45,709 bases of DNA from an uncultured Ruminococcus sp. Lineage in GTDB: Bacteria; Bacillota; Clostridia; Oscillospirales; CAG-272. Location: NCBI GenBank assembly GCA_902784545.1, contig CACZVC010000003.1:1-45709 (forward strand), given 5' to 3'. Made by a program: the position numbers and the translations under genes. The stretch's first letter is position 1. Each line of letters starts with the position of its first letter. Below the pieces are notes generated by a model. That model made no database searches. It was not told the DNA's origin and was given only the letters and a program-made list of their open reading frames with translations. Of this stretch, positions 5,310 through 32,961 are shown piece after piece.

Positions 5310-6200
5310 ATGCGCAAAAAAAGCCGGATCTTTGTGATACTCGCCGGGATCCTTTGGGGAACTACGGGAATATTCGTAAAACTGTTGTCGGAATACGGCT
5401 TCAACTCCGTATCGCTCACCTCGTTTCGCGGGCTTATCGCTTTTACATGCATCGCGGTATTCTGTCTTTTACGCGACCGTTCGGCTTTCAGAATAAAAAA
5501 AGCGGACCGGCTTCTTTACGCGGGGATAGGGCTGACACAGTTCGCCACGGCGGGATGCTATTTTGTCAGTATGCAGATGACGTCGGTATCGACCGCCGTT
5601 ATACTTATGTATACCGCTCCTATATACGTGACGCTGTTTTCGGTTTTTGTCTGGAAAGAAAGGTTTTCATATCTTAAAGGGCTTGCCGTCGCGGGGATGC
5701 TGATCGGATGCGTTTTCGTATCCGGCGTTATAGGCGGCGGCAAATTCAACGCTTTGGGCGTCGCTGTCGGCATTATATCCGGCATTACGTACGGCGGTTA
5801 CAGCATTTTATCGAAAAAAGCTCTTTTGAAAGGATATTCCCCGCTCTCAACGGTCTTATACGGCTCGCTTTCAATGGGCGTGCTCGGACTGCCCGCAACT
5901 CGTCCGGATGTGACCGCCGCCGCGTTTGAAAAATCGCCCTTAACGGTCCTTTTACTGCTTTTGGGGCTCGGTATAATCACGTTTTTCCTTCCGTTTTTCT
6001 TATACAACAAAGGACTTGAAAAGCTGCCCGCCGGGACCGCTTCCAGTCTGTCCGTTATAGAGCCTATGGCGGCGGCGATATTCAGCGTTCTGATCTTTCA
6101 CGAGTCGCTCGATGTTATTTCCGTTATCGGCATAGGATTGATAATGCTTTCCGTCGTTTTGCTCGGCATAGCCGACAAGCCGGAAAAAAGCAAAAACTGA
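5310..6200 (+). CDS. EamA/DMT family transporter
   Basis: About 10 predicted TM helices in two similar halves; N-terminus MRKKSRIFVILAGILWGTTGIFVKLL is typical of EamA. I moved the start to the ATG at 5310; the upstream part of the ORF-track frame lies in promoter DNA. Confidence 0.85.
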   Translation: MRKKSRIFVILAGILWGTTGIFVKLLSEYGFNSVSLTSFRGLIAFTCIAVFCLLRDRSAFRIKKADRLLYAGIGLTQFATAGCYFVSMQMTSVSTAVILMYTAPIYVTLFSVFVWKERFSYLKGLAVAGMLIGCVFVSGVIGGGKFNALGVAVGIISGITYGGYSILSKKALLKGYSPLSTVLYGSLSMGVLGLPATRPDVTAAAFEKSPLTVLLLLLGLGIITFFLPFFLYNKGLEKLPAGTASSLSVIEPMAAAIFSVLIFHESLDVISVIGIGLIMLSVVLLGIADKPEKSKN

Positions 6201-6220
6201 AAATCCGTTTGGTCAATCAC

Positions 6221-6495
6221 AAAGGGGATGCACGAAAGCAAGGTGCTCTAAAGGACAGTAAATAAAAACCGGCTGAGGTAAGGATAGTTGATCCTTATTC
6301 CAGCCGGTTTTTTGCCGCATGCCTCTGCAAGCAGGACGTTTGTGTGCCAAACGTCAAAGAAACAGTTTACAGTTATGATTGCACGCGATGCGTGCAAGTT
6401 ATGAGTTGAGGCTTCGCCTCAACGTTATGATATGAGTTCCGCAAACGTGCCGCAGGCACTCATAACTTGCGAAGCTCGGCTAAAGCATCCCCTTT
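6221..6495. repeat. 275-bp intergenic element bounded by perfect 11-bp inverted repeats; contains a terminator and a 26-nt-unit hairpin array (MITE/BIME-like)
   Basis: aaaggggatgc 6221-6231 pairs with gcatccccttt 6485-6495. Inside are two 26-nt units: agttatgat+tgcacgc-gat-gcgtgca (6371-6396) and agttatgag+ttgaggc-ttc-gcctcaa (6397-6422), then cgttatgat (6423-6431). atgagttccgc (6432-6442) and gtgccgc..tcataact (6447-6467) are shared with array A. Confidence 0.7.
6264..6313. terminator. Bidirectional terminator between the convergent EamA and ABC-operon genes
   Basis: aaaaaccggctg ... cagccggtttttt with an inner hairpin taaggat-agttg-atcctta; A-run on the left, T-run on the right. Confidence 0.75.
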
Positions 6496-6512
6496 ATGTT
6501 TTTCCTTACGTA

Positions 6513-7577
6513 TCAGTCGGCTGTCATACCGGAACGCTCGATACCCTGGATAAGGTATCTCTGGCAGAACAGGTAGATTATTACCAGCGGAGCTATTATC
6601 ATAAGACCGCAGGTATTTCTTATCGCCGCGTTATACATATTAGAGCCGGCGTACGTTATATTCAGCGATTCGGGTATCGCTATAACGTTTTTCATCAGTA
6701 CCATCGACGTCCTTGTGAAGAACAGCGAGGTGTAGAACGTGTCGGTCCACTGCCATGAGAACGCGAACAGGAATATCGTTATCATCATAGGCACGGACAG
6801 CGGCAGTATGATCTTGATGAACGTCTTGAATATACCGGAGCCGTCGATGTAGGCGGATTCCTCAAGCTCGTTCGGGACGCCGCGGTAGAACTGACTCATC
6901 ATGAAGATATACAGACCGTTCTTGAACGCGAGACCCGTCGCCGACAGGATAGCCAACGGAGCGTAGGTATTCGTCAGGTTGATGCTCGTTACGCCTCCCG
7001 TGATATTCAGATGCGGGAACCAGCTCGCGCCTCCGCCCAGCAGCTGCATGATACCGAGTACGTCGAAGTAACGGAATTTCATGAACAGCGAGAGCTGCAG
7101 CGTCTGGTGCGGGATTATCATCGTGAAGATAACGAGTAAGAACAGTATCTTATTGCCCTTGAATTTGAACTTTGCAAGACCGTAACCTATCATGGCGCAG
7201 ATGAACGTCTGTATCAAAGCCGCCGAGATCGACAGCAGAGCGGTGTTGCCGAGCGCCTGCATATACTTGTTTTCTAAGAATATGTATTTATAGGTATCAA
7301 GCGTAAAGTTCTTGGGTATGAGCTTGACCGTCGCGTCGACGAAGTCCTCGGGTCCCATAAAGGACGAGGAAACCTTCGAGAAGAACGGGAACAGTATTAT
7401 GTACGAAATACCGATCAGTATAACGTAACGGAATATCGTCCATATAACCTTTGACAAAAAGTTTTTATTGATGAACTTTGCTTTCATTCTCTGCCAGAAA
7501 GGAGTTCTGTCAAATTCCACCTTTATGGTGTTCTTTGTTTCCCTCTTGACTCTGGGTTCAGCCTGTGAGTTATTCAT
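6513..7577 (-). CDS. Carbohydrate ABC transporter permease (MalG-like), pair 2
   Basis: 354 aa, multi-TM, with EAA loop ELEESAYIDGSGIFKTFIKIILPLSVP. GAGGAGG RBS. Confidence 0.9.
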   Translation of the reverse strand: MNNSQAEPRVKRETKNTIKVEFDRTPFWQRMKAKFINKNFLSKVIWTIFRYVILIGISYIILFPFFSKVSSSFMGPEDFVDATVKLIPKNFTLDTYKYIFLENKYMQALGNTALLSISAALIQTFICAMIGYGLAKFKFKGNKILFLLVIFTMIIPHQTLQLSLFMKFRYFDVLGIMQLLGGGASWFPHLNITGGVTSINLTNTYAPLAILSATGLAFKNGLYIFMMSQFYRGVPNELEESAYIDGSGIFKTFIKIILPLSVPMMITIFLFAFSWQWTDTFYTSLFFTRTSMVLMKNVIAIPESLNITYAGSNMYNAAIRNTCGLMIIAPLVIIYLFCQRYLIQGIERSGMTAD

Positions 7578-7590
7578 TAGCTACACCTCC

Positions 7591-8574
7591 TCAGTCTCTT
7601 CTCTGATAGAAGACGAACAGCGACATCAACAGCGCGGCGACAATGACGGCTACGATAACTATGGCGAAGTAGATCCACGCCATGGCGACCGAAAGTGTGT
7701 CTTTGCCGGCTTCGCCGTAGACCTGGTTGATATATACCATAACGGAGTTTGTCGACGAGGTCAGCGCGTCTATTATGGTGTATATGAAGTTGACAAGTAT
7801 CATCGGGCTTATCATCGGGAACGTTATTTTCCAGAAGGTCTCCCAAGCGGACGCGCCCTCAACGCTGCAGGACTCATATATAGCCGGGGAAATCGACTGC
7901 AGACCCGCTAAGAATATAAGCATCTGAACGCCGGAACGGTTTACTATGTTGTAAATGTTGTTCAGTATAGACGAAACGTATTTCGCCATACCGCCGCCGA
8001 CCTTCATGTTGCTGAACAGATACTCTATATCCATTGCGGAAACTATTTCCGCGACGCTTGTGGTTTGTGCCGCGTTCGTTCCTATACCCTCGGAGTCAGA
8101 CATGTAGCTCATAAGGCTTGTGTTGCTGACGTCGATCTGTAATATAAGACCCGTTGACAATATGACCGGTACGAAGAATATCGCACGGAACGCGGCTCTG
8201 CCCACGATCTTCTGGTTGAGCAGGACTGCGATGAACAGTGAGAATATCAGTATCGCCGGTACGTCGAGCAGAAGCTGCTGCAGACCGGATACAAGCACCT
8301 GGCTGTAGTTCGGGTCCGTAAACAGAGCTTCCTTGTAGTTGGCAAGTCCCGCCCAGACGAGCTGGTAGGATTCGCCGGCGTTTATTCTTTCTATCGTGGT
8401 GACGCTGTATAAAAACGATTCAAATACGACAGGAAGATATATAACGATAAATCCGATTATGAACGGAAGCGTGAACAGATAACCGCCGCGCGCAGTCTTT
8501 TTCTCAAGAGAATGAACTTTTTTGCGCTTTTTGGGGGTATTCTGAACGAGCTTTACATCAGCTTGTTTATTCAT
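7591..8574 (-). CDS. Sugar ABC transporter permease (MalF-like), pair 2
   Basis: 327 aa with EAA loop IYESCSVEGASAWETFWKITFPMISP. The start overlaps the upstream stop as TAATG at 8572-8576. Confidence 0.9.
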   Translation of the reverse strand: MNKQADVKLVQNTPKKRKKVHSLEKKTARGGYLFTLPFIIGFIVIYLPVVFESFLYSVTTIERINAGESYQLVWAGLANYKEALFTDPNYSQVLVSGLQQLLLDVPAILIFSLFIAVLLNQKIVGRAAFRAIFFVPVILSTGLILQIDVSNTSLMSYMSDSEGIGTNAAQTTSVAEIVSAMDIEYLFSNMKVGGGMAKYVSSILNNIYNIVNRSGVQMLIFLAGLQSISPAIYESCSVEGASAWETFWKITFPMISPMILVNFIYTIIDALTSSTNSVMVYINQVYGEAGKDTLSVAMAWIYFAIVIVAVIVAALLMSLFVFYQRRD

Positions 8575-11500
8575 TATTCAGCCTCCTGCAAAAAATATGT
8601 TACGAATCCGAGCGGAGCGATCTCTCCGTCGTAACCGTCGACCTTAACGGCGTAGTTGTTATAGTTCAGAACGAACGTCTTGCCGCCCTCGTAGGTCACG
8701 CGGACAATCTTGCCGTTGGCGACGATGTCCTCGGGGTTAGCGTCGTCGATGATGGATTTGGGCTCGTCATCGCCGGCGGGCTCGGTCGTTTCAGCCTCGG
8801 TCTCCGTCTCCGTTTCGGCTTCGGTCTCCTCCGGTTCGGTTTCGGGAACTTCCTCGGCGGTCGCGCCTTCTTCGACTGTTTCGTCGGGAGCCTCGGTCAC
8901 GTCGTCAGCCGTCTTGGCGTCAAGCTCGGCCTGAGCTCTGCTTTCCTCGTCAAGTCTTCTCTGCTCGTCGTCCTCACGCTCTTTTATCTCGGCGGGTGTA
9001 AGAACGCGCACGCCCTTGACAAATTCGTGATTTACGATTATCTTATCCTGAACGTCCTTCAACGCTTCGTTCAAGATCTTGTACTTCTCAACAAGACCGG
9101 ATTCAGCCCAGATCTTGAAGTTTACGGAGTACATCTTCTTATATTCAGTGTCTTTCTTCAGGATATCCGTGTTTTCGTATGCAAGCAGGAAGTACGGGAC
9201 AGCGCCGTTTTCAATGGCTTTGAGCAGCTCGTAGTCGATGTCGCCCGCCATATTGAGCGCCGTGCCGGAGAACTGGACGTAGCCGTGTAAGACCATGCCC
9301 ATAAACGGTATCGCGTCGCTCGTTCTCAGGTACTGGCTGGAATCGAGCGGAGCGCCCAATATGTAGTCAACGTCCTTGAACGAGTACATATTGCCGCCGT
9401 TTACCATTACGTTGCCGAAATCCTCCTGCATCTTTGCGAGCAGATCCTTTACGAGGCTCTTCGAGTCCTCTCTGTTGTACGCGTCCTTCTTATCGAAGTC
9501 GGAGTTCAGATCGGAGCCGAGCGTACCTACCGATATACCGGAGGGCGCGTATTTGAGGAGTCTCGGAGCAAAATGCTCGTAGAAATACTCGAATACCGAC
9601 GTTGATATGAGGTTGGGACCCCATCTTCTCGTCATCTGGTACGCGGGATCGTAGTAGTAGGTCCTCGGATAACGGTTATCCATCGTCTTTGCGGCGTGCT
9701 TCTTATAAGAGAAGCCGTCGAACATCTTTGTTTTCTGCAGATACGTGAACTCGAATTCGGGGAATATCTCGATACCCTTCTCGTTCGCGTAATTCATGAG
9801 ATCTTCAAAGCCCTTGTTTCCGCCGACCTTGCTCTCCCACTTGACGTTGTACGGCACCGTGGCGTACAAGCCGCCGTTTGCGTAACCGGTCAGCTTGAAC
9901 TTGACGTTCTGAATGCCTTTTCCGGAAAGCTGTTCGTACATCGCCTTTATATCCTCGAACGAGGTAAGAGGCTTTTTGACCGTTACGGGAACGCTGAGTA
10001 TCGTGTCCTCGGTCTCTATCGTGCCGAGAGTTTCAAGCACGAGCGGGATATCGGATTTGAGATCCTCTTTTTTGAGTCTTGTTATCAGTCCGGCTGATTC
10101 AAGGTAATCGCGGCAGGCGTTGACCATGCCCATGTAATCCGCGTTGTAGAACTTGGATTTAGTATCCGCCTTGCCCGCTTCGGTCTCGTAGTATTCATCG
10201 ACCTTCGTCGCGTCGGAGAGCAGATAGTATTTTACCGTGTAGTTGCCGGTGTATTTTCTCTTCGCGGAGACCGTCCACATCGCGTCGTCAGCGGCGGCGC
10301 CCATCGCTTCTCTCAAGCTGTAGGAGTCGGTAGGTCTCGGGAAGAATTTAGTCTGAACGGAGCTGTAAATGTGCGTCGATCCGCCGCCGTTTATGGTGGA
10401 GATCTGCGCAAGCGCGTCGCCCTCGGTCAGGACCGCGAAGTAACCTCTGTTGTCCGTGACTATGGTTGAGCGCATCTCGGTCTTGGTCTTTATCCAGTAG
10501 CCGTAGGGGTCGAGGTACCATTCCTCGGGAGGAAGGTCGACCGTGACCGCCTTGACCGTTCTGCTGTAATAGTTTTCAACGACGCCGTATACCGGCATTC
10601 TCATCGTCTGGCGGTGCGCCGGGTCCGTGGTGTAATACGCGTAGTCGGGACCGTAGACGTTTGAGGTGATGTTCAGCGGTTTTGTGACGTCCTCGAATCT
10701 CGTGATAGCGCCGCTGCCGTCCGGTATGAACGTGAAGCCCTGATACGAGCTGTTGCCGCAGCCGAACCACGGGTTGATCTGCAGGTAGTCGAGGGTGTAG
10801 ACGTTCTCGTCGAAGCTTATGCTGTTGGCGGCGAGCCTCTGAGTTATGCCGTCCTCGTTCAGTGTGTACTCGATAGCCATGCTGAACAGCGGCTGCGATA
10901 CGGCTGCTACCTCAAATTCCGTTATATCGTGGTCGTAGTCGAGATCTTCATAGCTGTAATCGGGGGCGTACATTTTGATATAGCCCTCAAGCATGTTGTA
11001 CTCACGGTCCTTCGTATCGGTACCGAGTATCCAGACGCACGGATATTTTTTCAGTATCGGCCACTGAGAAATCATCTGGTCGCGCTGAGTTTTCGTTATA
11101 GTCGGGTCGTTTATGTCCTTCGGCGAATAGAAGCCGCCTACGAACTTGTTAAGAACGAACTCACGGGTCTTCTCGGGGAGATCCGCCGTGTTTTCATTCA
11201 TCGGGTCGACTATTTTTTCCTTGAAGCGCTCGTCGGTGATCATCTGCGGGACGAGCCATCTCGTCTGTGTCTTACCGAGCGTGTACTCGACGCGGACGCC
11301 GTTTTTGATGTTCTTTACGATTATCTGTTCACGAAGGGCGGCTTCCGTATAGCTGTTGTACACGGTCGTTTTCGAGCCGGAGGTGAACTGAAGGATTATC
11401 TGGGACATCAGCTCGGCTTTCGTATCGGCGGAGCCCTTTGTTGAGCCTATATCGTAGGGGTTTGAGAAAAGGATCTGACCCGTTCTCTTATCCTTTACAG

Positions 11501-11765
11501 CGATCTCGCCGTACATTGCGCGGACGTAAAGCTCGTAATTGTCGTTTTCGATACGCTTTCTCATGTCCTTGAGCTTATCCTCGGGCGTCTTGTAGACGAC
11601 TTTAAGGATATCGACGCTCTTGTCCTCGGGGGTGTTGTCGTCTTCTTCCTCGGTCGTTTCCGCCTCCGCGGCTTTAGCCTCGACCTTCAGATTGGTGCTG
11701 AAGATCACCGTGAAGACTGACAAAGCCATTAAAACGGCAAGCAAGGTTGAGAGTATTTTTTTCAT
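8574..11765 (-). CDS. Large secreted protein, DUF5696-like (assignment from memory, needs an HMM check)
   Basis: Start set at the ATG at 11765 (GGGAGGA 8 nt upstream); the ORF-track start 11783 lacks an RBS. Signal peptide MKKILSTLLAVLMALSVFTVIFS and an acidic linker. Central region has GFTFIPDGSGAI and KFKLTGYANGGLYATVPYNVKWESKVGG..GIEIFPEFEF motifs, followed by a C-terminal E/T-rich linker and a small beta domain. Confidence 0.8.
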   Translation of the reverse strand: MKKILSTLLAVLMALSVFTVIFSTNLKVEAKAAEAETTEEEDDNTPEDKSVDILKVVYKTPEDKLKDMRKRIENDNYELYVRAMYGEIAVKDKRTGQILFSNPYDIGSTKGSADTKAELMSQIILQFTSGSKTTVYNSYTEAALREQIIVKNIKNGVRVEYTLGKTQTRWLVPQMITDERFKEKIVDPMNENTADLPEKTREFVLNKFVGGFYSPKDINDPTITKTQRDQMISQWPILKKYPCVWILGTDTKDREYNMLEGYIKMYAPDYSYEDLDYDHDITEFEVAAVSQPLFSMAIEYTLNEDGITQRLAANSISFDENVYTLDYLQINPWFGCGNSSYQGFTFIPDGSGAITRFEDVTKPLNITSNVYGPDYAYYTTDPAHRQTMRMPVYGVVENYYSRTVKAVTVDLPPEEWYLDPYGYWIKTKTEMRSTIVTDNRGYFAVLTEGDALAQISTINGGGSTHIYSSVQTKFFPRPTDSYSLREAMGAAADDAMWTVSAKRKYTGNYTVKYYLLSDATKVDEYYETEAGKADTKSKFYNADYMGMVNACRDYLESAGLITRLKKEDLKSDIPLVLETLGTIETEDTILSVPVTVKKPLTSFEDIKAMYEQLSGKGIQNVKFKLTGYANGGLYATVPYNVKWESKVGGNKGFEDLMNYANEKGIEIFPEFEFTYLQKTKMFDGFSYKKHAAKTMDNRYPRTYYYDPAYQMTRRWGPNLISTSVFEYFYEHFAPRLLKYAPSGISVGTLGSDLNSDFDKKDAYNREDSKSLVKDLLAKMQEDFGNVMVNGGNMYSFKDVDYILGAPLDSSQYLRTSDAIPFMGMVLHGYVQFSGTALNMAGDIDYELLKAIENGAVPYFLLAYENTDILKKDTEYKKMYSVNFKIWAESGLVEKYKILNEALKDVQDKIIVNHEFVKGVRVLTPAEIKEREDDEQRRLDEESRAQAELDAKTADDVTEAPDETVEEGATAEEVPETEPEETEAETETETEAETTEPAGDDEPKSIIDDANPEDIVANGKIVRVTYEGGKTFVLNYNNYAVKVDGYDGEIAPLGFVTYFLQEAE

Positions 11766-11784
11766 ATTCGGTTTTCCTCCCATC

Positions 11785-13923
11785 CTATATTCGATACGAC
11801 AGCTCTGTGACTATGTTTGCCACGAAGCCTACGATCTTCTGAATCAGGTTCGTAAACAGAAGCGCTACGAACATTATAAACGCCATACCCACGACGGTAC
11901 CTGCCGACGTGATGATGTTTTTGATAAATGAATAGTCGTGAGTTACCTGCGAGCCGAACAGCACCAGCATACCGACCCACGCCCACATAACGCCGACGAT
12001 AAGTCCGAGCACCTTGCCCTCGGAGAGGCTCAGGATGTGGGACAGAAGCGTGTGCGGGATTATGCAGAGCGGTATCGGAACGAGCGCGTAGCACGTCGCG
12101 ATGAATATATCTTTAAGGCTGCCCTCGCCCTCGAACAGAGTGGTAAGACACCAGTTGGATATGACCCACAGACCGACAGGAACGACTATCGAGATTATCT
12201 GACCGAAAATGCTCTGATAGCCTCTTGACGGGTTGAACAGGTAAGCCGTGCCTATGCCGTTGTAGGTGAAGGACGCTATCGCTATCGCCAGCCACGTTAC
12301 GGCGCCTCTTATGGATCCGCGCTTTTCATGCTTCAGATCCCAGAAGCCGTCGAACGGGTGCATCATAAGGTGGAAGGCGAATATGACCTCCTCGCCGTAC
12401 GACCTGCGTCCGCCCGGTCTCGTCGCGACCTCCTTGTTCCTCTTGCCGACGAAGCGGAAGAAGAAGTAAAGTCCTACTACGACCACGATTACCACGAGCG
12501 GAACGACCAGCGCGTATTTGGCTACCCATTCCTTTCTGTACTGCTTGAACGCGGTGGAGTAGTTCGTCGTTTCGTACGCCGCCTCATACATCTTCATGGC
12601 TTCCTGATATTCGCCTTCTCTGTAATGGGCTTTGCCTATACCGACGTACGCCTCGTCGAAGTTGTTGTTTCTCATAAGGATGCCGCGCCAGTTGTCGGCA
12701 GCCTCTTCATAGTTAAGGCTCTTCTGGTTCTGCAGAGCGCTTATAAGGATGTTGCCGTATTCCGTTCTCTTGAACACCGTGATATTGTCGGCGGTGTTGT
12801 CGAGCACGAGCAGGTCGGCGCCCTTGTAAACGACGCTGTTGACCGTTTCCATATTTCCGAGCTGGGAGCCCTGGTCACCGAAGATGAACAGAAGCGAGCC
12901 GTTCTCGTCGTATGTGTATACCTTGGATCTCGTCTTGTCTATGATCGACCACGTTCCTATCGGTCCGAGAGTTACGTCGACGATCTTCGACGGTCCGTAA
13001 ATGCTTGAGCTTGTGGAAGCGCTGCGGTTGATCCTGACCTCGCCGGACGGCGGGTAGAAGCCGTTACGCTTAAGGATCTCGTTACCCTGGGTATTGAGCA
13101 TCTTGACCGGCGCGTATTCGCCGCTCGTGCTCTTGCCCTCGATTGCGCTCTGCTGCGCGCCCTCGTCAAGGTTTATGTTCGTAACGTAGATCATACCGTT
13201 ATCGTCTATCGTGATGTTTTCATACTCGGACGATATGGTCTTCTGCTGCTGGTCTATCTGCTCCTGCGTCTGGAATCTTCTCCAGAAGATCTGCCAGGCG
13301 GAAAGCGGAGCCTTCTGTGCGCCGATGAAGCCCTGGAACACGCCGTCGCTGTCCATGGCGATGATGCCCTGATACGTGGAGGTCGAAACGACGTACATTC
13401 TTCCCGATCTGTCGACCGCGACCGCTTTCGGGCGGTAGAGGTCGTCTACCGAGAATTCGTCGGCTATCGGCTTTTCAACCACCTTTACAAAGTTGGCGTC
13501 ACGGTCGAATATTACTATTCTGTTGTTGTCCGTATCGCAGACGTAAATATTGTTCTCCGTTACGAAGACGCCCTGCGGGTTGTTGAATTTGTCCTGGATT
13601 CCCTGGGAGTTCACAAACTTCTCTATGTAGTAGCGGAGCTTGTATCTCTTGTTGAGAACTATTATTCTGTTATTGCCGGCGTCGGCGATATAAACGTTCT
13701 GCTTATCGTCGACGAACAGGTCTGACGGGTTTTCAAGCGCCGGGGACACGCCCATCGTTTCGCTTGTAACTATCTCGTCCGGAACGTAGGCGTCCGGAGA
13801 TTCCATATAGTTTCCGTTTATATCGTACGTGTAGCTCTGGTAGGAGTAGTACGACGCTGCGGCAGGCGCGAGCATGAGCAGTACGGCAAATACGACCGCG
13901 GCGGCTTTAATAATATTTTTCAT
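11785..13923 (-). CDS. NHL-repeat beta-propeller / TPR / Yip1-domain multi-pass membrane protein
   Basis: True start is the ATG at 13923 (AAGGAGG RBS, signal peptide MKNIIKAAAVVFAVLLMLAPAAA). The ORF-track extension to 14181 overlaps the upstream permease gene. NHL motifs: NVYIADAGNNRIIVL, NIYVCDTDNNRIVIFD, RMYVVSTSTYQGIIAMD. TPR-like: EAYVGIGKAHYREGEYQEAMKMYEAAY. Yip1-type C-terminus: HPFDGFWDLKHEKRGS plus 5 TM helices. Confidence 0.85.
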   Translation of the reverse strand: MKNIIKAAAVVFAVLLMLAPAAASYYSYQSYTYDINGNYMESPDAYVPDEIVTSETMGVSPALENPSDLFVDDKQNVYIADAGNNRIIVLNKRYKLRYYIEKFVNSQGIQDKFNNPQGVFVTENNIYVCDTDNNRIVIFDRDANFVKVVEKPIADEFSVDDLYRPKAVAVDRSGRMYVVSTSTYQGIIAMDSDGVFQGFIGAQKAPLSAWQIFWRRFQTQEQIDQQQKTISSEYENITIDDNGMIYVTNINLDEGAQQSAIEGKSTSGEYAPVKMLNTQGNEILKRNGFYPPSGEVRINRSASTSSSIYGPSKIVDVTLGPIGTWSIIDKTRSKVYTYDENGSLLFIFGDQGSQLGNMETVNSVVYKGADLLVLDNTADNITVFKRTEYGNILISALQNQKSLNYEEAADNWRGILMRNNNFDEAYVGIGKAHYREGEYQEAMKMYEAAYETTNYSTAFKQYRKEWVAKYALVVPLVVIVVVVGLYFFFRFVGKRNKEVATRPGGRRSYGEEVIFAFHLMMHPFDGFWDLKHEKRGSIRGAVTWLAIAIASFTYNGIGTAYLFNPSRGYQSIFGQIISIVVPVGLWVISNWCLTTLFEGEGSLKDIFIATCYALVPIPLCIIPHTLLSHILSLSEGKVLGLIVGVMWAWVGMLVLFGSQVTHDYSFIKNIITSAGTVVGMAFIMFVALLFTNLIQKIVGFVANIVTELSYRI

Positions 13924-13937
13924 TATTATATACCTCC

Positions 13938-14813
13938 TTAGTCTTTCATACCGGAAGACGCCATCGTCTCGATTATGTTGCTCTGCGAGATAATGAAGAC
14001 CGTTACCGGTACTATCATCATTATGACCATCGCGGCGGTACTTGCGCCGGCGCGGACGATACCCGCGGACAATATCTGCTGTATGGCGTAGTTGAACGTC
14101 TTTAACTGCTCCGACTGGATGTAGACGGAGGAACCCGTGTTCCACAGTCCCTGGAACGAATACACGATAAGCGTGAGCCACGCGGGCTTGACCATCGGCA
14201 TCGCTATGGACCAGAACACCTTGAATTCGCTCGCGCCGTCCAGACGCGCGCTTTCAAGCGCTTCGTTTGAAACGGATGAATCCATGAACTGCTTCATCAG
14301 GTACAGACCCAGAGTCGAGCAGCAGGCAGGCAGGATGATCGCCAGCAGGTTGTCGATGAGTCCCAAGAACGAGAACGTGATGAAGTTTGCTATACCGGTT
14401 ACCGTGGAAACGAACATAAGCGATAAAACTATCATCTGGAATATCGTCTTTCTGCCCGGGAACGGTATCTTCGACAGCGCGTACGCCGCGAGAGAACCCA
14501 AGCAGAGGTTTCCGAAAGTACCGGCAGCCGTGATGAGCACGGTGTTGAATATGTACCTTGAGAAAGGCACCCACGACGTGTTCATCAGCTTGAACAGGTC
14601 TGCGTAATTCTTGAACGTCGGGTTTATGACGTAGAATTTCGGCGGGAATATCCAGAGCTCGTCAAGAGGCTTCAGCGACGTCATTACCGAGAAGTACATC
14701 GGTATGAACATCAGTACACCCAATATGACAAGCACTACGGTGATACCCGCGTCGCCCCCGGCAGACCGGTTAAGGACGACCTTGTGATTTCTGACACGCA
14801 TTTTTCTTGCCAT
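13938..14813 (-). CDS. Carbohydrate ABC transporter permease (MalG-like), pair 1
   Basis: 291 aa with EAA loop EALESARLDGASEFKVFWSIAMPMVKP. Confidence 0.9.
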   Translation of the reverse strand: MARKMRVRNHKVVLNRSAGGDAGITVVLVILGVLMFIPMYFSVMTSLKPLDELWIFPPKFYVINPTFKNYADLFKLMNTSWVPFSRYIFNTVLITAAGTFGNLCLGSLAAYALSKIPFPGRKTIFQMIVLSLMFVSTVTGIANFITFSFLGLIDNLLAIILPACCSTLGLYLMKQFMDSSVSNEALESARLDGASEFKVFWSIAMPMVKPAWLTLIVYSFQGLWNTGSSVYIQSEQLKTFNYAIQQILSAGIVRAGASTAAMVIMMIVPVTVFIISQSNIIETMASSGMKD

Positions 14814-14814
14814 A

Positions 14815-15774
14815 TTACTGTCCCACCTTTGATAAGAGTTTCTTGATAAGCATATTCGAGCCTATCATCATCAGGAACAGTATCGTTGCGATAGCGGACG
14901 AATATCCGACCTCGAAACGCTGTCCTCCGTAGTCCTCCAAGTGGTGCATGATGGTCCATGCACAGTAGTCGACGGACGGGAAGCCGGCGAGCGCCGTAAC
15001 TATACCGCCGAAGCCGAAGGAACCGGTTATACTCATAACGGCGCCGAACATCAGCTGTTCCTTCATCGCGGGCAGGGTTATGTACCAAAGCTCCTGCCAG
15101 CGGTTCTTTACGCCGTCGAGCGCGCCCGCCTCGTAAAGGCTGTTATCGACTATCTGAAGACCCGCGATAAACGAAAGGAACGTAGTACCGAGCGAGGTCC
15201 ACAGAGCGACGATTATGCACAGCGGCATAACGTACCGCGCGTCCTGGAAGAACTGAACAGGCTCCGTTATGAAGTTGTACTCGATCAGGAAGCCGTTTAC
15301 GTAACCGTAACGGTCCGACGAGAAGAAGATACCGAATATCTGATACATCGAGCCGGCGATGGACGGAGCGTAGAATATAAGTGTTACGAACGCTCTCATC
15401 TTCGGGGGCAGCTCGTTTATGAACCATGCTACGAACAGCGACAACAAGTACGAAACAGGTCCCGTGACAACCGCGAATATAAGCGTGTTCTGTATGGCGG
15501 TAAGGAATATATCGTCGTCGAGGAACAGTCTTATGTAGTTGTCAAGTCCAACGAATTTCGGCCATTCGAGCAGGTTGAAGGATGTAAAGCTCAGTATCAT
15601 GGAAAGAAAGACCGGAACGACCGTGAATACGAAGAAGAGTATGAAGAACGGAGCTATCATTATGTAACCCGCTTTGTTCTTCTTCATCTCCTTGAGCGTC
15701 CACTGGGCTTTCGTCATGTCCTTTCTTGCCACCGGCTTTGCTTTTCTCTCTTTTACTGCCGTATTCTGTGACAT
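14815..15774 (-). CDS. Sugar ABC transporter permease (MalF-like), pair 1
   Basis: 319 aa with EAA loop LYEAGALDGVKNRWQELWYITLPAMKE. Confidence 0.9.
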   Translation of the reverse strand: MSQNTAVKERKAKPVARKDMTKAQWTLKEMKKNKAGYIMIAPFFILFFVFTVVPVFLSMILSFTSFNLLEWPKFVGLDNYIRLFLDDDIFLTAIQNTLIFAVVTGPVSYLLSLFVAWFINELPPKMRAFVTLIFYAPSIAGSMYQIFGIFFSSDRYGYVNGFLIEYNFITEPVQFFQDARYVMPLCIIVALWTSLGTTFLSFIAGLQIVDNSLYEAGALDGVKNRWQELWYITLPAMKEQLMFGAVMSITGSFGFGGIVTALAGFPSVDYCAWTIMHHLEDYGGQRFEVGYSSAIATILFLMMIGSNMLIKKLLSKVGQ

Positions 15775-15833
15775 GTTGATTCTCTCCTGTTTAAAAATTT
15801 GCGTTTATACTATATGAATAAATATTATACCGT

Positions 15834-18800
15834 TCATTTGAACCATTCGGGATGCGCTTCCTTGTTTTCATCCCTGAAATCTTCATAAGTAATCAGACCA
15901 AACTCTTTGCGCTTGCGCGAAAGCTCGTTGTTGATGTACTGTATCTGGTCAAGCAGCGAGTCCGTCGCGTCCGCGTTGTTGTTATAGCAGTTAAGGAAGG
16001 CAAAGTCAACGTAACGCGTGATGATGTAGCCGCCCGGGAATTCCGGAGTGCCTTTCAGATGCGCGAACTGGGCTTCGAGATTCTTTCTCTCCTGGTTGGT
16101 CCACGACATATTGCGGAGAGCCTCGGTGTTTGCGGTGTTGAATTTCGCCGCCATACCGATTATGGCCTCATACTGCTTTGCGTAAGAGGACTGAGCCTGC
16201 GCTCCCGTCCACCACTTCATGTACTCCCAGCAGTTCTTGCGAAGCTCCTCGGATCTTCCCTTCTTGTCTCTCATTATGACCGTAGCGGAGACCGAGCAAG
16301 GAGCGTTGCTGTTTATTACGGGCAGTCCGTCGTCGCCTATAATGTCGTTGCCGTTCTCATCCTTCTGGATGGTTCCGGGCAGAAGCGTGAATTCCCACAG
16401 ACCGCGGAGCTCTGTCGCGTAAATGGTGAACTGGTTGTACGTCAGGTAATCCGCCACGGCTATCGGCATCTCGCCCATACGGAAGTACGTCGCAAGGTCG
16501 TAAGCACGCGGGAACTTGAACGTCTGGAACAGAGTTACAAGCTCGTTGAAGCATTCAAGAGACGTTTTTGAATCAATGTTTATCTGCATACCGTCAAGCA
16601 CGCCGTCGCCGTCGATATCGGAATAGAGGTCCTCGTCACGCTGATACATCAGCATCATCAGACCGCCCAAGCTCGACGGGAAGCCGACCTTACGGTAGTT
16701 TATCTGCAAGGCGGGAACTATATCGTAGAGATCACTCCAGGTTTGCGGAACTTCAAGATCGAGCTCCGCGAATATGTCTTTGCGGTAGAACAGCATCGAG
16801 AAGCCGAGACGCTCCGGAATGCCGTAGTAAATGTATGAACCGAGGTGGTCCGGGTTTTCAAGACGGAGACCTACGAGCGCCTGATCGCTGAATCTGTCGG
16901 CGCAGACCTGCGGGTAATCGGAGTAGAGGTTGTTCGCCCCGTCCGATTCTATGTAAAGCGGCTCTATGGCGCTCCTTATGGCGTAGTTGATAACGTCCGT
17001 CTGACCCATGGCGAGCGATATGTCGGGACCGTCGCCCGCGAGCGTCGCGGGAAGCAGCGTGCCGGCGGCGACCAGTTTAAGGTTGACCTTGACCGGGCAG
17101 TCGACGTCTATCAGCTCACGCATGACCTGCGCTTCCTCACGGCTGGTGGATATCCAGACCTCAACGGGCTCGACCGTGCTGTTGTCCTCGATGGCGCCGA
17201 GCGAGTTGTAATCGGTGAAGAAGCTGGCGAAGAAGGCGCTTACCTCAAAGCCGAGGGACTTGAAGAAGCCTGCCGCCGCCTTCGGATAATCCTTGGCGTC
17301 CTTGCCCGCGGGCTGTAAGGAGATGTAGTCTATATTCAGCGCCTGCAGCTTGGTGTTCATGACCCAGGTGCCGAGGTAACCGGTGTTGACCTTCAGGTTA
17401 TCGAGGTTCTTCGCTATCTCGGACTCCTTGCTGCTCATCTTCTGCAGTAAGTACGCTATTTTTTCAAGTGTCGCTATATCGGACGCGGATTTGCCGCCCA
17501 GGATCTTTTTGAACTGTTCGGCGACATCCGTGATTTTTAACTGCGTCGATCTCATGAGAAGGATCGTGTCGTAGATGACCTCGGCGAAGCCGTATGAAAC
17601 GAATTCGTCCGGGTTCGGACCGGTGATCCTTATGATCGAGCGGTATATCGAGTTCATATCGTCGATACAGTCGCCTATCTGACGGAGCGTATCCGACATG
17701 TTGCCGTAGCCGACTTCCATTTTGATCTTGTAGTCCTTGCCTGCTTCAAACCAGAACTTAAGATCCTTTTCGCCGTCGTTCAGCGGACTGCACTGCCAGT
17801 CGTCGTCATAGTTGAACTGCAGTCTGTAACAGTTTTCAAACGGTATCTCGCCGTTTATGTAAAGCACGCGGGAAACGTACAGACCTTCGCGTATGGACTG
17901 CTTGAATCTCGGCACGATGTAGTAGTAGCCGTCCTCGGTTATCTCGGAGCCGGGTATCGTCCACTCTATCCACTGACCGAACGTCTGCCACTTGTTGTCG
18001 CCTATCGTGTTGAGAAGCTGACGCGAAGCGTGCTGCGGCTCGGTTATCGACGACGTTCTGTCGTTCAGCGCGTATATGGTAAGGTCGGACGTCGAGCTCG
18101 GCGTTTCGGCCTGTACCTTCGGCGCGTTCGCCGAAGCCGAGGCGTCCTTCGTTCCGTGGCTCTCAAGGTATTCCTCATATGAGGGCAGACCCTTGTACGG
18201 CTCGACGTGGATCTCGGAGATTATGATGTCGTTCATCGTAGCGTTGAACGATATCGTATGCTCGCCCTTGGTCAGCGCGTATTTGAGCGGCTGCAGCTCG
18301 TAGCCCTGCGAGTCGCGCAGATATGATTCCGACCATTCGTAAATCTGCTGCTTCTGCGGCTTCTTTTCGTTCTGGTTCTTGTCAAGCGTAAAGCCCTGGG
18401 TGCCGTCCTCCCGCTTAACGTCGGCATCCAACATATCAACGAATTTTCTCGTGAATTCGAAGTAGTAGGATTCGCTGAACGGAGCCGTTCCGTCAACGAA
18501 AAACTCACGCTTGATGTTAGACGTGTTTATGTTCTTTGTCTCGAAGGGCTTGTATTCGATGCGGACGACGTAGTAGCCGGTCTCCGGCACGTCTATCTTC
18601 CAGCTCGTTACGCCCGCTTCGGGCATGTGAAGGACGCTGCCCTTCTCCGGGTCGTTCATTACCTCGGCCTTCTGCTCGGGGTAGTCCGGGTCAGGCTCGA
18701 AGGTGTACCCTTCCGCCGCCTTTACCGTGACGCCGGCGCCTGTCGCGTCGTGCCAGTTCTGGGCGTTCCTTTCTTCGATATAGGTATGGTAGTCCTCGCT

Positions 18801-18947
18801 GTAGAGGTACTCCTTTACCTGGTCCATGGTCGTCTTTTCCGTTTTTGTGCCGGTCTCGGCGGCAGGTGCGGCTAAGACGCCCGTAGAGAGTAGCATAAGC
18901 GCCGCAAGCAGGACTGCTAACGCTTTTGCCGTTTTGGATGATCTCAT
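15834..18947 (-). CDS. Giant extracellular solute-binding protein: two CBM-like beta-sandwich modules + family-1 sugar SBP fold
   Basis: 1037 aa with signal peptide MRSSKTAKALAVLLAALMLLSTGVLAAPA. Two similar modules (WKIDVPETGYYVVRIEYKPF...FFVDG and WIEWTIPGSEITEDGYYYIVPRFKQ...LYINGE). The C-terminal roughly 450-500 aa resembles a sugar-binding protein (VEVWISTSREEAQVMRELID...VAAGTLLPATLAGDGPDI). Confidence 0.8.
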   Translation of the reverse strand: MRSSKTAKALAVLLAALMLLSTGVLAAPAAETGTKTEKTTMDQVKEYLYSEDYHTYIEERNAQNWHDATGAGVTVKAAEGYTFEPDPDYPEQKAEVMNDPEKGSVLHMPEAGVTSWKIDVPETGYYVVRIEYKPFETKNINTSNIKREFFVDGTAPFSESYYFEFTRKFVDMLDADVKREDGTQGFTLDKNQNEKKPQKQQIYEWSESYLRDSQGYELQPLKYALTKGEHTISFNATMNDIIISEIHVEPYKGLPSYEEYLESHGTKDASASANAPKVQAETPSSTSDLTIYALNDRTSSITEPQHASRQLLNTIGDNKWQTFGQWIEWTIPGSEITEDGYYYIVPRFKQSIREGLYVSRVLYINGEIPFENCYRLQFNYDDDWQCSPLNDGEKDLKFWFEAGKDYKIKMEVGYGNMSDTLRQIGDCIDDMNSIYRSIIRITGPNPDEFVSYGFAEVIYDTILLMRSTQLKITDVAEQFKKILGGKSASDIATLEKIAYLLQKMSSKESEIAKNLDNLKVNTGYLGTWVMNTKLQALNIDYISLQPAGKDAKDYPKAAAGFFKSLGFEVSAFFASFFTDYNSLGAIEDNSTVEPVEVWISTSREEAQVMRELIDVDCPVKVNLKLVAAGTLLPATLAGDGPDISLAMGQTDVINYAIRSAIEPLYIESDGANNLYSDYPQVCADRFSDQALVGLRLENPDHLGSYIYYGIPERLGFSMLFYRKDIFAELDLEVPQTWSDLYDIVPALQINYRKVGFPSSLGGLMMLMYQRDEDLYSDIDGDGVLDGMQINIDSKTSLECFNELVTLFQTFKFPRAYDLATYFRMGEMPIAVADYLTYNQFTIYATELRGLWEFTLLPGTIQKDENGNDIIGDDGLPVINSNAPCSVSATVIMRDKKGRSEELRKNCWEYMKWWTGAQAQSSYAKQYEAIIGMAAKFNTANTEALRNMSWTNQERKNLEAQFAHLKGTPEFPGGYIITRYVDFAFLNCYNNNADATDSLLDQIQYINNELSRKRKEFGLITYEDFRDENKEAHPEWFK

Positions 18948-19039
18948 TGGCTTTTCCTCCTGATGAATATCGACGATACCGCGATGCGGTAAAGGTCACG
19001 CGCGCTGAAACGAGAAACAACGCGCTATAATTTAAATAT

Positions 19040-19068
19040 AATATATCACAAGATTTTTATATTGTCAA
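19040..19068 (-). promoter_or_regulatory. Sigma-70-type promoter of the seven-gene operon
   Basis: On the minus strand: TTGACA (19068-19063), 17 nt, TATATT (19045-19040), preceded by TGa. This leaves a leader of about 85 nt before the ATG at 18947. Confidence 0.6.
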
Positions 19069-19439
19069 TACCGATTTTTTTAAATAAATATCATCATTCT
19101 TTCATACGGTTTTCAGAATAATGCCCAAAACGGTCATCCGCGTTTTTTGTGTAAATTCCCCAAACCGTTTTTCGGCGTCTGAGCGCGCGCGATACGGCCG
19201 TTTTTTTGCGTTTTTTCGGCGTATTTTGTATCTTTTTGAATCCGCAAATTTAAAAATATTTTGCGCATTATATTAAAATATTTACGGAAACTGAAAATCG
19301 CGCCGTGTTTGACGTCGTTTTTCGCGATTTTTGCGGCCGGGTTGATTTGTAGGTTTTGCACAATTTTAAGCGCGAAATTTCTACATTTGTGCAATTTTCA
19401 CAAAATTTCGGATTTTTTATCGAAATTCGGAAAATCGTC

Positions 19440-19468
19440 TTTACAAACGCGCTTTTTCGCTGTATAAT
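19440..19468 (+). promoter_or_regulatory. Sigma-70-type promoter upstream of the GNAT remnant
   Basis: TTTACA (19440-19445), 17 nt, TATAAT (19463-19468). Confidence 0.5.
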
Positions 19469-19499
19469 GGGGGAAAATTCCATACGGCAAACAACACTT

Positions 19500-19943
19500 A
19501 TGAAAAAAGAAAACGTAATCAAAAAATTCAAAAACATACCCGTTATAAAGACGGAAAGGCTGACTCTGCGCCGTATGCGCGTCGAGGACTGCCACGATAT
19601 GTACGAGTATTCCAAACGCGAAGACGTGACGGAATATCTGCTGTGGTCGCCGCATCCAAACCGCACGCACACGAGAAAATACCTTGAATATATAAAAACG
19701 CGATACGACGACGGCGAGTTTTACGACTGGGCGGTACAGCTCGATTCCGAGCAGAAGATGATAGGCACCTGCGGCTTTTCGTCGATAGATTTCGCAAACA
19801 ACTCCGCCGAGGTCGGCTACGTCATAAACCCGGCGTACCGCGGAAGGGGCTACGCGCCGGAGGCTCTGCTCGAAATAATGATGTTCGGCTTCCTTGAGCT
19901 GAATCTCCACAGGATTGAGGCGAGGTATATGGACGGCGAATAG
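19500..19943 (+). pseudogene. GNAT (RimJ/RimL-like) N-acetyltransferase, 3'-truncated
   Basis: The N-terminus TERLTLRRMRVEDCHDMYEY and QKMIGTCGF..ANNSAEVGYVINPAYRGRGYAPEA..LHRIEARYMDGE are typical. The frame stops exactly where the conserved N..S..v.eK.GF..EG C-terminal block (about 40 aa) should begin. No SD lies close to the ATG at 19500. Confidence 0.55.
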
Positions 19944-20059
19944 CTGCCCCCCACGAGCCAGTACGCCACGACAGCCAGCGCCCAGGCCCCGGCAATGCAC
20001 GCGGCGTCCGCCAGCGCCAGCGCCAAATTCATCAAAACACGCTAAAATATAGGAAAATA

Positions 20060-20160
20060 AAACATTGGGGAGCTTGGTGAAACGCCCGGCTGAGAGGAAA
20101 CACAGTTTCGACCCGTAACCTGATCCGGATAATGCCGGCGTAGGGAATGAGTACCTGAAA
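20060..20160 (+). promoter_or_regulatory. TPP (THI-box) riboswitch
   Basis: ggggagc...ggctgagagg...acccgtaacctgatccggataatgccggcgtagggaa matches the TPP aptamer consensus (CUGAGA; ACCUGAUCnGGAUAAUGCCnGCGnAGGGAA). It sits upstream of thiT. Confidence 0.93.
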
Positions 20161-20174
20161 TTGGGATGAGCTTG

Positions 20175-20200: not shown

Positions 20201-20242
20201 ATGTTCACCCGTCCCCTTTTCCTCAAGAGAAAGGAAAACAAA

Positions 20243-30002: not shown

Positions 30003-30017
30003 AAGGAGGAGGATATA

Positions 30018-32146: not shown

Positions 32147-32196
32147 ATTATTTCTCCTTTTTATAATTTGTTTTTATGAATCTTCAAAACATTTTA

Positions 32197-32904: not shown

Positions 32905-32961
32905 TTTTGTATTCTCCTATCTTCTTTACGATTTTTGTAAGAAATTATGATTTATCAAACT

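Follow-up and report, generated by a model that had tools for sequence, protein, structure and literature searches.

Organization of the seven-gene cassette

On the minus strand of the window, a 45,709-nucleotide stretch of a contig from an uncultured Ruminococcus sp., lies a cassette of seven open reading frames (positions 6513–18947) with one strong promoter upstream and one strong terminator downstream. In order of transcription they encode a secreted substrate-binding protein (SBP), permeases P1 and P2, an NHL/TPR/Yip1 membrane protein, a secreted DUF5696 protein, and permeases P3 and P4. Pfam searches of all seven confirmed the domains predicted in the initial annotation: SBP_bac_8, four BPD_transp_1, NHL with TPR and Yip1, and DUF5696 (PF18952, E=5.6e-135). 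From the SBP gene to P4 the intergenic spacing is 59, 1, 14 and 19 nt, a 1-nt overlap and 13 nt. A single nucleotide separates the P1 stop from the P2 start, and the DUF5696/P3 overlap, TAATG at 8572–8576, agrees with the tight packing first described.

The sigma-70-type promoter (19040–19068, minus strand; TTGACA, a 17-nt spacer and TG-extended TATATT), which the initial annotation had picked out as the one good promoter, scores 11/12 and is the top minus-strand match within 6000–19600; it is conserved in the closest relatives (L001, L003–L006 and L048). Below it is a 5′ leader with two hairpins (18972–19026, minus strand; fold energy −22.1 kcal/mol, z=−3.2), matching no Rfam family. The loop of hairpin 1, TGTTTCTCGTT, is conserved, and its stem changes in sequence with pairing maintained; conservation of the leader is limited to the closest clade. 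At the other end of the cassette is an intrinsic terminator common to the cassette and a convergent EamA gene (6261–6312, minus strand), composed of a hairpin (~6312–6261; −27.4 kcal/mol, z=−6.4, 0/200 shuffles equally stable) and a U-run. The single promoter and terminator, the tight or overlapping junctions and the colinear conservation described below indicate that the seven genes are a single operon.

Related loci were taken from 80 different genome assemblies, with five more loci obtained from public assemblies through exact-protein look-up (three NCBI, two ENA). All seven genes occur in the same order on one strand in 68/68 loci, a count that takes in only those on sufficiently long contigs; this colinearity exceeds chance by far and persists to about 34–40% identity. 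The view of the genes as one unit, and the recurrence of Yip1, DUF5696 and sugar permeases in shared neighbourhoods stated in the initial annotation, are borne out. Carriers are monoderm Clostridia of the gut, rumen and digesters; in the 80 assemblies that the search returned, each genome has a single copy of the cassette. Here the cassette is flanked by housekeeping or envelope genes; in relatives the flanks are unrelated housekeeping genes, no gene outside the cassette is conserved, and the envelope genes found next to it here are not kept beside it. The operon has neither an ATPase nor a regulator gene, as first noted; none is present in the window as a whole, and none is linked to the cassette in relatives. 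Searchable literature contained no mention of DUF5696 or of the seven-gene cassette, which, as the initial annotation had supposed, is without a functional description there.

Binding protein, permeases and membrane protein

The SBP (1037 residues; 15834–18947, minus strand) is composed of a signal peptide, a β-sandwich (residues 73–250), a second, CBM35-like β-sandwich (314–413), a helical bundle (417–533) and a MalE-like domain (537–1037). The β-sandwiches are predicted in the AF2 model (pLDDT 84.9). Among the Foldseek matches listed, target TM ranges from 0.63 to 0.79, the maximum being for MalE-type oligosaccharide binders, and binding proteins for cycloalternan, cycloisomalto-oligosaccharide and cyclodextrin are included; the nearest solved relatives of the SBP domain are oligosaccharide binders without exception. 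The top sequence match of its profile in the PDB is Lin1841 (E=8e-21). The earlier description of this protein as CBM-bearing has no Pfam support in the protein itself; its basis is the predicted β-sandwiches, sub-threshold CBM_35 matches in orthologs and a profile match (E=4.5e-7) to the region of chain 5x7g, a cycloisomaltooligosaccharide glucanotransferase (CITase), that we take to be its CBM35.

The SBP and DUF5696 proteins both carry SPase-I-type signal peptides without a lipobox. No lipid anchor is predicted for the SBP, and a lipobox-like motif is found in only 2/69 of its orthologs; retention of the two proteins at the cell must therefore come from something else.

Two complete permease pairs are encoded, all on the minus strand. 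P1 (14815–15774; MalF/UgpA-like, NCBIfam top match UgpA; EAA loop EAGALDGVKNRWQELWYITLP) pairs with P2 (13938–14813; MalG/UgpE-like by NCBIfam; ESARLDGASEFKVFWSIAMP), and P3 (7591–8574; SugA/AlgM1-like; ESCSVEGASAWETFWKITFP) with P4 (6513–7577; SugB/AlgM2/MalG-like, also by NCBIfam; ESAYIDGSGIFKTFIKIILP). The closest solved relatives of P3 and P4 are SugA/SugB, AlgM1/AlgM2 and MalG. Both pairs had been judged intact, and their EAA loops are indeed conserved in orthologs (P1 n=72, P2 n=78, P3 n=80, P4 n=77), as are the whole proteins (majority-residue conservation 0.72–0.79); within P3 and P4, conservation is lowest in the additional loops that face outward (0.49–0.53). At 24–26% identity between pairs, the sequences point to ancient paralogs and no recent duplication.

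With MalF-/MalG-like permeases, EAA loops and a family-1 SBP of MalE fold, the cassette resembles CUT1 importers (MalEFGK2, LpqY–SugABC, AlgQ–AlgM1M2SS) and the Gram-positive loci built on them; in Firmicutes the ATPase of such importers is often encoded elsewhere. Unlike these, it has two complete permease pairs per binding protein, an SBP of 1037 residues with two CBM-like modules, a helical bundle and no lipid anchor, and an obligatory Yip1/NHL/TPR membrane protein in the operon, and it has no regulator and no intracellular glycoside hydrolase (GH). The SBP's nearest solved relatives belong to the Listeria Lin1841 (sophoro-oligosaccharide) and Lmo0181 (cycloalternan) loci, in which a single permease pair is accompanied by lipoprotein SBPs, regulators and enzymes of known GH families. 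Identity among the structural matches listed is ~13–18%, and no substrate is transferable from these systems.

The only membrane-embedded non-transporter component of the cassette is the NHL/TPR/Yip1 protein (712 residues; 11785–13923, minus strand; Pfam Yip1 45.6 bits, NHL 43.4 bits). Its reading frame as listed extends to 14181; the location of the ribosome-binding site and signal peptide places the start at 13923. The signal peptide is followed by an NHL six-blade-type propeller, a TPR region, one transmembrane helix and a multi-pass Yip1 domain, and profile matches in the PDB are to the NHL propellers of PknD, Pizza and TRIM71 (profile positions 55–205) and to TPR (400–455). The ortholog alignment contains an invariant motif, HPFDGFWDLKHEKRGS, predicted from the transmembrane segments to be cytoplasmic.

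The predicted glycosidase fold of the DUF5696 protein

The secreted DUF5696 protein (1063 residues; 8574–11765, minus strand) starts at an ATG at 11765 preceded by the ribosome-binding site GGGAGG. It comprises an N-terminal β-sandwich, a (β/α)8 barrel (~575–905), a helical/acidic insertion (924–1005) and a C-terminal β-domain (1018–1058). The first Foldseek match of its AF2 model (pLDDT 79.4, pTM 0.74) in the PDB is the GH129 enzyme DagB (5opq; E=1e-22, target TM 0.68), followed by NagBb (~1e-17) and then GH101, GH31 and GH36 enzymes; E values across the series run from 1e-22 to 1e-8. GH129 comprises NagBb, an α-N-acetylgalactosaminidase, and DagB, a 3,6-anhydro-D-galactosidase; GH101, GH31 and GH36 are related, and all four are α-glycosidase families. 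The three-domain fold of the model is shared with these families, and its domain order equals the β-sandwich, TIM barrel and C-terminal β-domain of DagB (PMC5698469).

Unlike these enzymes, to which identity is ~10% with no HMM-level relationship, the DUF5696 protein is ~400 residues larger and carries before its last β-domain a helical insertion rich in Ala, Glu and Lys. This insertion is ~80 residues long here; in three relatives of 1839–2545 residues that were read, an Ala-rich tail of ~900–1,600 residues lies beyond residue 950 and ends in the same C-terminal β-domain motif. No GH family was matched in Pfam (E<=10), a profile search of the PDB gave no match, and hhalign against E. coli YihQ returned a probability of 0.1. 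The statement that the locus holds no recognisable glycoside hydrolase therefore holds for sequence searches but not for the modelled fold; nor do those searches place the protein in an established GH family whose substrate has been assigned.

Four residues, D756, E578, R765 and H827, show no variation across 127 sequences. D756 falls within G[TS]DLNSDFD, the best-conserved motif of the protein, and in the model would lie just after the strand we read as barrel strand 4, where the nucleophile of GH31, GH36, GH101 and GH129 enzymes sits. D808 is Asp in 105/127 sequences; no residue is assignable as the general acid/base in this alignment, a further difference from those families. On the strength of the model, the protein is most likely a glycosidase of a new family, its linkage specificity probably α given the very distant structural kinship with GH129, GH101, GH31 and GH36.

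Proposed function of the cassette

We consider it somewhat probable that the seven genes form a self-contained extracytoplasmic system capturing, cleaving and importing a glycan. The non-lipidated SBP would capture a glycan or oligosaccharide through its two CBM35-like modules and MalE-like domain, and the DUF5696 protein would cut the glycan extracellularly, probably at an α-linkage. Two separate CUT1-type heterodimers, P1P2 and P3P4, would then take up the product or products, energized by a shared MsmK-type ATPase presumably encoded elsewhere in the genome. The NHL/TPR/Yip1 protein may tether the soluble parts to the membrane, organize both translocators, or do both. A model for such a scaffold, by analogy, is YknW of Bacillus, whose YknXYZ partners form an ABC transporter; as in the cassette, a Yip1-family membrane protein is encoded together with ABC-transporter subunits, although YknYZ is a MacB-type exporter and the cassette permeases are of the type-I importer class. 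We know of no NHL propeller or TPR ectodomain in YknW. That protein has been reported to modulate assembly of the ABC-transporter complex (PMC4887032).

Counting against capture, cleavage and import are the missing sequence-level link of DUF5696 to any GH family, the failure to assign it a general acid/base, and the lack at the locus of an ATPase, a regulator or an intracellular enzyme for processing imported oligosaccharide. Against contact between the cassette proteins count the poor conservation of the P3/P4 outward loops and a negative length-correlation test.

With a single SBP beside two intact and anciently diverged permease pairs, the cassette could instead be two coupled modules, a conventional importer (SBP–P1–P2) and a unit of NHL/Yip1, DUF5696, P3 and P4 without a classical binding protein, an arrangement we regard as unlikely. 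The NHL/Yip1 and DUF5696 genes do occupy the positions expected of a binding-protein gene before P3P4, and the DUF5696 stop codon runs into the P3 start both in this locus and in L001–L017. The enzyme or the NHL propeller would dock on P3P4 and pass its product on directly. Weighing against this arrangement are the low conservation of the outward-facing insertions in both permeases and a DUF5696 model in which no SBP-like fold was seen; to our knowledge, no type-I importer functions without an SBP-fold binding protein. Rather improbable is a housekeeping role in place of foraging, with the cassette turning over a glycopolymer of the cell's own surface (wall polysaccharide, teichoic-acid glycan or capsule); the enzyme would trim the polymer and the transporters recycle its fragments. 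The single-copy look, housekeeping setting and strong, constitutive-looking promoter are unusual for a nutrient-specific utilization locus, and they fit turnover, as do the missing regulator, the housekeeping/envelope flanks and a fixed composition without the diversification typical of nutrient loci; yet binding proteins that carry CBMs, like oligosaccharide binders of the MalE type, typify foraging systems, and the neighbouring envelope genes are not conserved beside the cassette. Export or surface assembly of a polymer, entertained in the initial annotation, can be almost entirely discounted: the three large proteins that are secreted or sit at the surface, the Yip1 scaffold and the lack of catabolic genes would suit it, but each of the four membrane subunits is an importer permease of the BPD_transp_1 type with an EAA loop, the binding protein has a MalE-like fold, and we know of no exporter with type-I ABC architecture.

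Under the favoured reading of capture, cleavage and import, there is a parallel in functional logic with the Sus-like systems of Bacteroidota, in which surface glycan binding, a surface glycosidase and a dedicated transporter are likewise encoded together. The likeness is one of analogy only, as the proteins are entirely different and a SusC/D TonB-dependent transporter takes the place of ABC permeases. Owing to the predicted GH129/GH101/GH31-type fold of DUF5696, the locus would resemble a glycan-utilization system far more than a mysterious envelope machine.

Organization and conservation of the cassette

Seven consecutive ORFs make up the cassette, which occupies positions 6513–18947 on the minus strand of the window. 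In order of transcription, their Pfam assignments are SBP_bac_8 (the 1037-residue binding protein, SBP), BPD_transp_1 twice (permeases P1 and P2), NHL, TPR and Yip1 combined in one protein, DUF5696 (E=5.6e-135) and BPD_transp_1 twice more (P3 and P4). Successive genes are separated by 59, 1 (P1 stop to P2 start), 14 and 19 nt, then overlap by 1 nt (TAATG at 8572–8576), and the last two are 13 nt apart. The start of the NHL/TPR/Yip1 gene was reset to 13923, where AAGGAGG is followed by an ATG and a signal peptide, giving a protein of 712 residues instead of the 798-residue ORF. That of the DUF5696 gene lies at 11765, preceded by GGGAGG, giving 1063 residues, the length also reported in the initial annotation. 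The single good promoter proposed there is borne out by a minus-strand site at 19068–19040, which scores 11/12, carries a TG extension and is the top minus-strand site of the region. At the end of the unit is a terminator (6312–6261, minus strand), in which a hairpin (-27.4 kcal/mol) leads into a U-run.

Located in the 5′ leader (18972–19026, minus strand) is a hairpin with the invariant loop TGTTTCTCGTT, the stem of which varies in sequence while its pairing is kept; a second, variable hairpin follows it. The invariant-loop hairpin is limited to the nearest clade, comprising the window and the related loci L001, L003–L007, L018 and L048. An Rfam search detected no leader riboswitch at the cassette, and the leader hairpins have no match to any Rfam family.

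Scanning 185,579 species-representative genomes (one per species) with a DUF5696 alignment identified 409 stretches encoding a relative. The best 80 of these 409 stretches, each from a different assembly, derive nearly all from MAGs of rumen, gut and anaerobic digesters, and are labelled Clostridia, Oscillospiraceae, Ruminococcus or Candidatus Flemingiibacterium. Five further loci were added through distant SBP and Yip1 homologs, and every ORF of the resulting 85 loci was classified against the seven window proteins. The complete set is present in 68 of the 85 loci, colinear and on a single strand in every case; the remaining 17 are truncated at contig ends. The lowest identities to the window proteins are about 40% (DUF5696) and 34–36% (SBP). 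The recurrence of Yip1-family, DUF5696 and sugar-permease neighbourhoods stated in the initial annotation is borne out by all 68 complete loci, each of which has the Yip1/NHL protein, DUF5696 and a double permease pair. Chance adjacency of two operons is ruled out by this colinearity.

Clustering of the flanking ORFs of 80 loci revealed no conserved gene beyond the seven, the commonest neighbour occurring in 15 loci at most. The neighbours are housekeeping genes (IscS/NifU, GNAT, CarB, RecG and helicase), with ROK in about seven loci. As no neighbour outside the seven genes is conserved, the cassette is a self-contained unit. By the same clustering, the locus does not extend beyond these genes, and neither a regulator nor an ATPase is linked to it.

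The ROK-family gene, where present, is divergent and immediately upstream of the cassette (for example, at 964–2355 in locus L058 and 8530–9489 in L082/L083), and in this subset its product could be regulatory or a sugar kinase. In the window, a convergent EamA gene separates the 3′ side of the cassette from a nearby gene for a 716-residue NAGPA (phosphodiester glycosidase) protein (2938–5088, minus strand). This gene does not belong to the cassette, as its downstream position is conserved in no more than the four closest loci. Locus L050 (JAGARL010000319.1) is labelled Methanocorpusculum sp., yet contains a Clostridia-type cassette with the layout of locus L049; the contig probably entered the MAG as contamination during binning.

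Elsewhere in the window, a TPP riboswitch (20056–20163, plus strand; 64.3 bits) precedes a gene for a thiamine transporter of the ThiT/YuaJ type (20201–20956), and an MBOAT gene and the DHHW/AlgX-like gene after it (28578–31454, plus strand) form a pair typical of glycopolymer O-acylation. The stretch 32001–34000, with a GC content of 0.34 against about 0.50 in the rest of the window, may be a foreign island; its two minus-strand ORFs (32197–32904 and 32962–33951) have no Pfam match. The 2108-residue ORF at 39274–45600 (minus strand) contains Listeria-Bacteroides repeats (Flg_new), Big_6 and fn3 domains, and hence encodes a giant surface protein. Adjoining the 5′ end of this gene, on the opposite strand, is a match to the Rfam Gut-1 sRNA (38948–39019, plus strand; 57.4 bits, gathering score 50).

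The two secreted proteins

The DUF5696 protein matches PF18952 with 451.7 bits (cutoff 25.6), and all 46 aligned homologs also match this family. Sequence searches found nothing significant for other families, either in Pfam (46 members, E≤10) or in the PDB (single-sequence and profile searches), and the 46 members have no Pfam match to GH129, GH101 or GH31 at E≤10. The AlphaFold2 model (pLDDT 79.4, pTM 0.74) is composed of an N-terminal β-sandwich, a (β/α)8 TIM barrel and a C-terminal β-domain, a three-part layout shared with DagB (PMC5698469). Compared with the PDB using Foldseek, this model resembles GH129-like DagB (5opq; E=1e-22, target TM 0.68) and GH129 NagBb (5wz* entries, including 5wzn; E about 1e-17, target TM 0.69), followed by GH101 (E of 1e-12 to 1e-8, target TM 0.24–0.31), GH31 (E of 1e-10 to 1e-7, target TM 0.32–0.47) and GH36 (E about 1e-8, target TM 0.38–0.40). 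The model therefore has the fold of GH129, GH101 and GH31, but the protein lacks sequence-level membership of these families. The apparent absence of an enzyme, the biggest puzzle of the initial annotation, is explained by this GH-like fold.

In these glycoside hydrolase families the nucleophile sits after barrel strand 4; in GH129, GH101 and GH31 of CAZy it is an aspartate, with the acid/base after strand 6. Invariant among 127 aligned DUF5696 members are E578, D756, R765 and H827, and near-invariant are D767 and E852 (numbering of the window protein). D756 lies within G[TS]DLNSDFD, the top-conserved motif of DUF5696, following the strand read as barrel strand 4. D752 (Asp in 114/127) likewise follows presumed strand 4, and the tentative candidate after strand 6 for the acid/base position, D808, is Asp in only 105/127. 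Judged by its fold and conservation, the DUF5696 protein probably has glycosidase or transglycosidase activity, in a family that sequence comparison has not yet connected to any GH family.

The GH31 and GH36 nucleophile signatures are absent from the ORFs of at least 450 residues in the 85 loci, DUF5696 orthologs included, and the fetched flanks, searched for GH31 or GH36 genes as partners for hhalign, contain none. Alignment to E. coli YihQ (GH31) with hhalign is not significant (probability 0.1); the sole local alignment overlaps the YihQ nucleophile segment, which is a hint only.

The DUF5696 family comprises 5,536 clusters at 50% identity (E≤1e-3), and many of the representatives listed greatly exceed the window protein in length, reaching 2545 residues; P0369, P0393 and P0424 are among these long relatives. 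In three of them (1839–2545 residues), some 900–1,600 residues past position 950 form an Ala/Glu/Lys-rich helical extension, devoid of Pfam domains and ending in the C-terminal β-domain motif of the window protein, in which the matching insertion between the barrel and the last β-domain is about 80 residues. One DUF5696 homolog carries the JGI annotation 'Membrane protein involved in colicin uptake', perhaps reflecting a similar helical region.

The match of the SBP to SBP_bac_8 (34.8 bits, cutoff 27) spans only residues 629–928 of 1037. In the AlphaFold2 model (pLDDT 84.9) the signal peptide is followed by two β-sandwiches (residues 73–250 and 314–413), a helical bundle (417–533) and a MalE-like domain (537–1037). 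Foldseek groups the last of these with oligosaccharide binders (target TM 0.63–0.79 among the matches listed), among them Xanthomonas MalE and the binding proteins for cycloisomalto-oligosaccharide, sophoro-oligosaccharide, cycloalternan and cyclodextrin, and a profile of 46 SBP homologs matches Lin1841 (E=8e-21). The second sandwich matches a region of 5x7g (CITase; E=4.5e-7), which we take to be its CBM35, and the CBM_35, Golvesin_C and GH115_C matches of SBP orthologs are all sub-threshold. The term 'CBM-bearing' used in the initial annotation seems reasonable on this evidence, which is remote.

The signal peptide of the SBP lacks a lipobox, there being no cysteine in the N-terminus of the window protein, and a lipobox-like motif occurs in just 2/69 orthologs. 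This is unusual when compared with the SBP lipoproteins of monoderms, and retention of the SBP must be by something other than a lipid anchor.

The membrane proteins

All four BPD_transp_1 subunits exceed the Pfam gathering score, and each keeps its EAA coupling loop in 72–80 orthologs, in line with the initial annotation, to which neither pair looked decayed. Identity between the pairs is 26% for P1/P3 and 24% for P2/P4, marking them as ancient paralogs, and the majority-residue conservation of the permeases overall is 0.72–0.79. The closest solved structures to P3 and P4 are SugA/SugB, AlgM1/AlgM2 and MalG. Both pairs appear to be functional halves of type-I importers. CUT1 type-I importers (MalFGK2-E) have one pair per binding protein, whereas one SBP accompanies two pairs in 68/68 complete loci.

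The cassette shares with CUT1 importers the permeases and a family-1 SBP of MalE fold, but has no co-encoded ATPase. As first noted from the sequence, ATPase and regulator genes are both missing: no ABC_tran ATPase is present among the window ORFs scanned or conserved beside the cassette in the 85 loci, and no regulator is present among the window ORFs scanned or consistently linked across loci. We assume an ATPase common to other systems and encoded elsewhere.

Between the two permease pairs is the gene for the NHL/TPR/Yip1 protein, composed of a signal peptide, an NHL propeller, TPR, one TM helix and a Yip1 domain. The Yip1 match (PF04893; 45.6 bits, cutoff 28.6) covers profile positions 2–172 of 173, with hydrophobic segments present; the NHL match scores 43.4 bits, and the propeller profile matches PknD, Pizza and TRIM71 (E down to 1e-27). 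After the TM helix comes the invariant motif HPFDGFWDLKHEKRGS, which would be cytoplasmic by the positive-inside rule. For its length this protein is conserved better than the SBP or DUF5696, its nearest database homologs among those looked up are in the same cassette, and it co-occurs obligatorily with the cassette transporter genes (68/68 complete loci). For bacterial Yip1 proteins, the literature searched offered a single functional precedent, YknW, which is reported to modulate how the YknXYZ ABC transporter assembles (PMC4887032). Like YknW, the cassette protein is encoded with ABC transporter subunits, and it is in this co-occurrence that the likeness lies.

A putative system for glycan capture, cleavage and import

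The most parsimonious account of all the parts is that the cassette encodes an extracellular system by which a glycan is bound, cut and taken up. The SBP, with its CBM-like and MalE-like parts, would bind the glycan and the GH129-like DUF5696 protein would cleave it, with P1P2 and P3P4 forming two importer translocons powered by an ATPase encoded elsewhere. The NHL/TPR protein, anchored by Yip1, would serve as a scaffold, a role that would explain membrane retention of the two secreted, non-lipidated proteins, SBP and DUF5696. Length co-variation among the SBP, the NHL protein and DUF5696, taken as a proxy for co-adaptation, is not significant (Spearman 0.13–0.20), and scaffold contacts gain no support from it or from loop conservation. 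Set against a Gram-positive polysaccharide-utilization locus, the cassette has a transporter and a CAZyme-like fold but no consistently linked regulator.

This absence of a regulator points to another reading, in which recycling of surface glycan made by the cell itself is a housekeeping function; further pointers to it are the strength of the promoter, the housekeeping genes in the flanks and what looks like one copy of the cassette per genome. Alternatively, the cassette could comprise two modules, with the enzyme or the propeller, in place of the SBP, serving P3P4; within P3 and P4, conservation is lowest in the extra outward loops, which lend no support to a docking surface there. An export or assembly role, raised in the initial annotation, is very unlikely in view of the importer-type permeases and the MalE-like binder.

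The capture, cleavage and import reading has a more ambitious form, which we regard as speculative and rather doubtful: a physically assembled surface machine of monoderms, a Gram-positive counterpart of the Bacteroidota utilisome. Here the Yip1-anchored NHL/TPR scaffold would hold the founding member of a new GH family, a non-lipidated CBM-bearing SBP and two different ABC translocons. Import of two products would be directly coupled to cleavage, and the supply of one translocon might not need a classical binding protein.

A search of the literature, in agreement with the initial annotation, found no mention of DUF5696 or PF18952 and no description of the cassette. Its overall scheme, a binder with a glycosidase and an ABC importer, is of an already known kind; the new features are the fixed seven-gene composition, the double permease pair, the obligatory Yip1/NHL/TPR subunit, the anchorless giant SBP and a GH-like family with no CAZy sequence link. 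The cassette is widespread in poorly studied Clostridia of gut, rumen and digesters, and its double permease pair poses the question of whether one binding protein serves two translocons. If the proposed system is correct, DUF5696 would be a new glycoside hydrolase family, and the Yip1 subunit would be the first bacterial Yip1 protein with a role in a nutrient importer. The cassette would then offer a test case for how, with neither lipid anchors nor cellulosome-type modules, secreted proteins that process glycans are retained and organized by monoderms.
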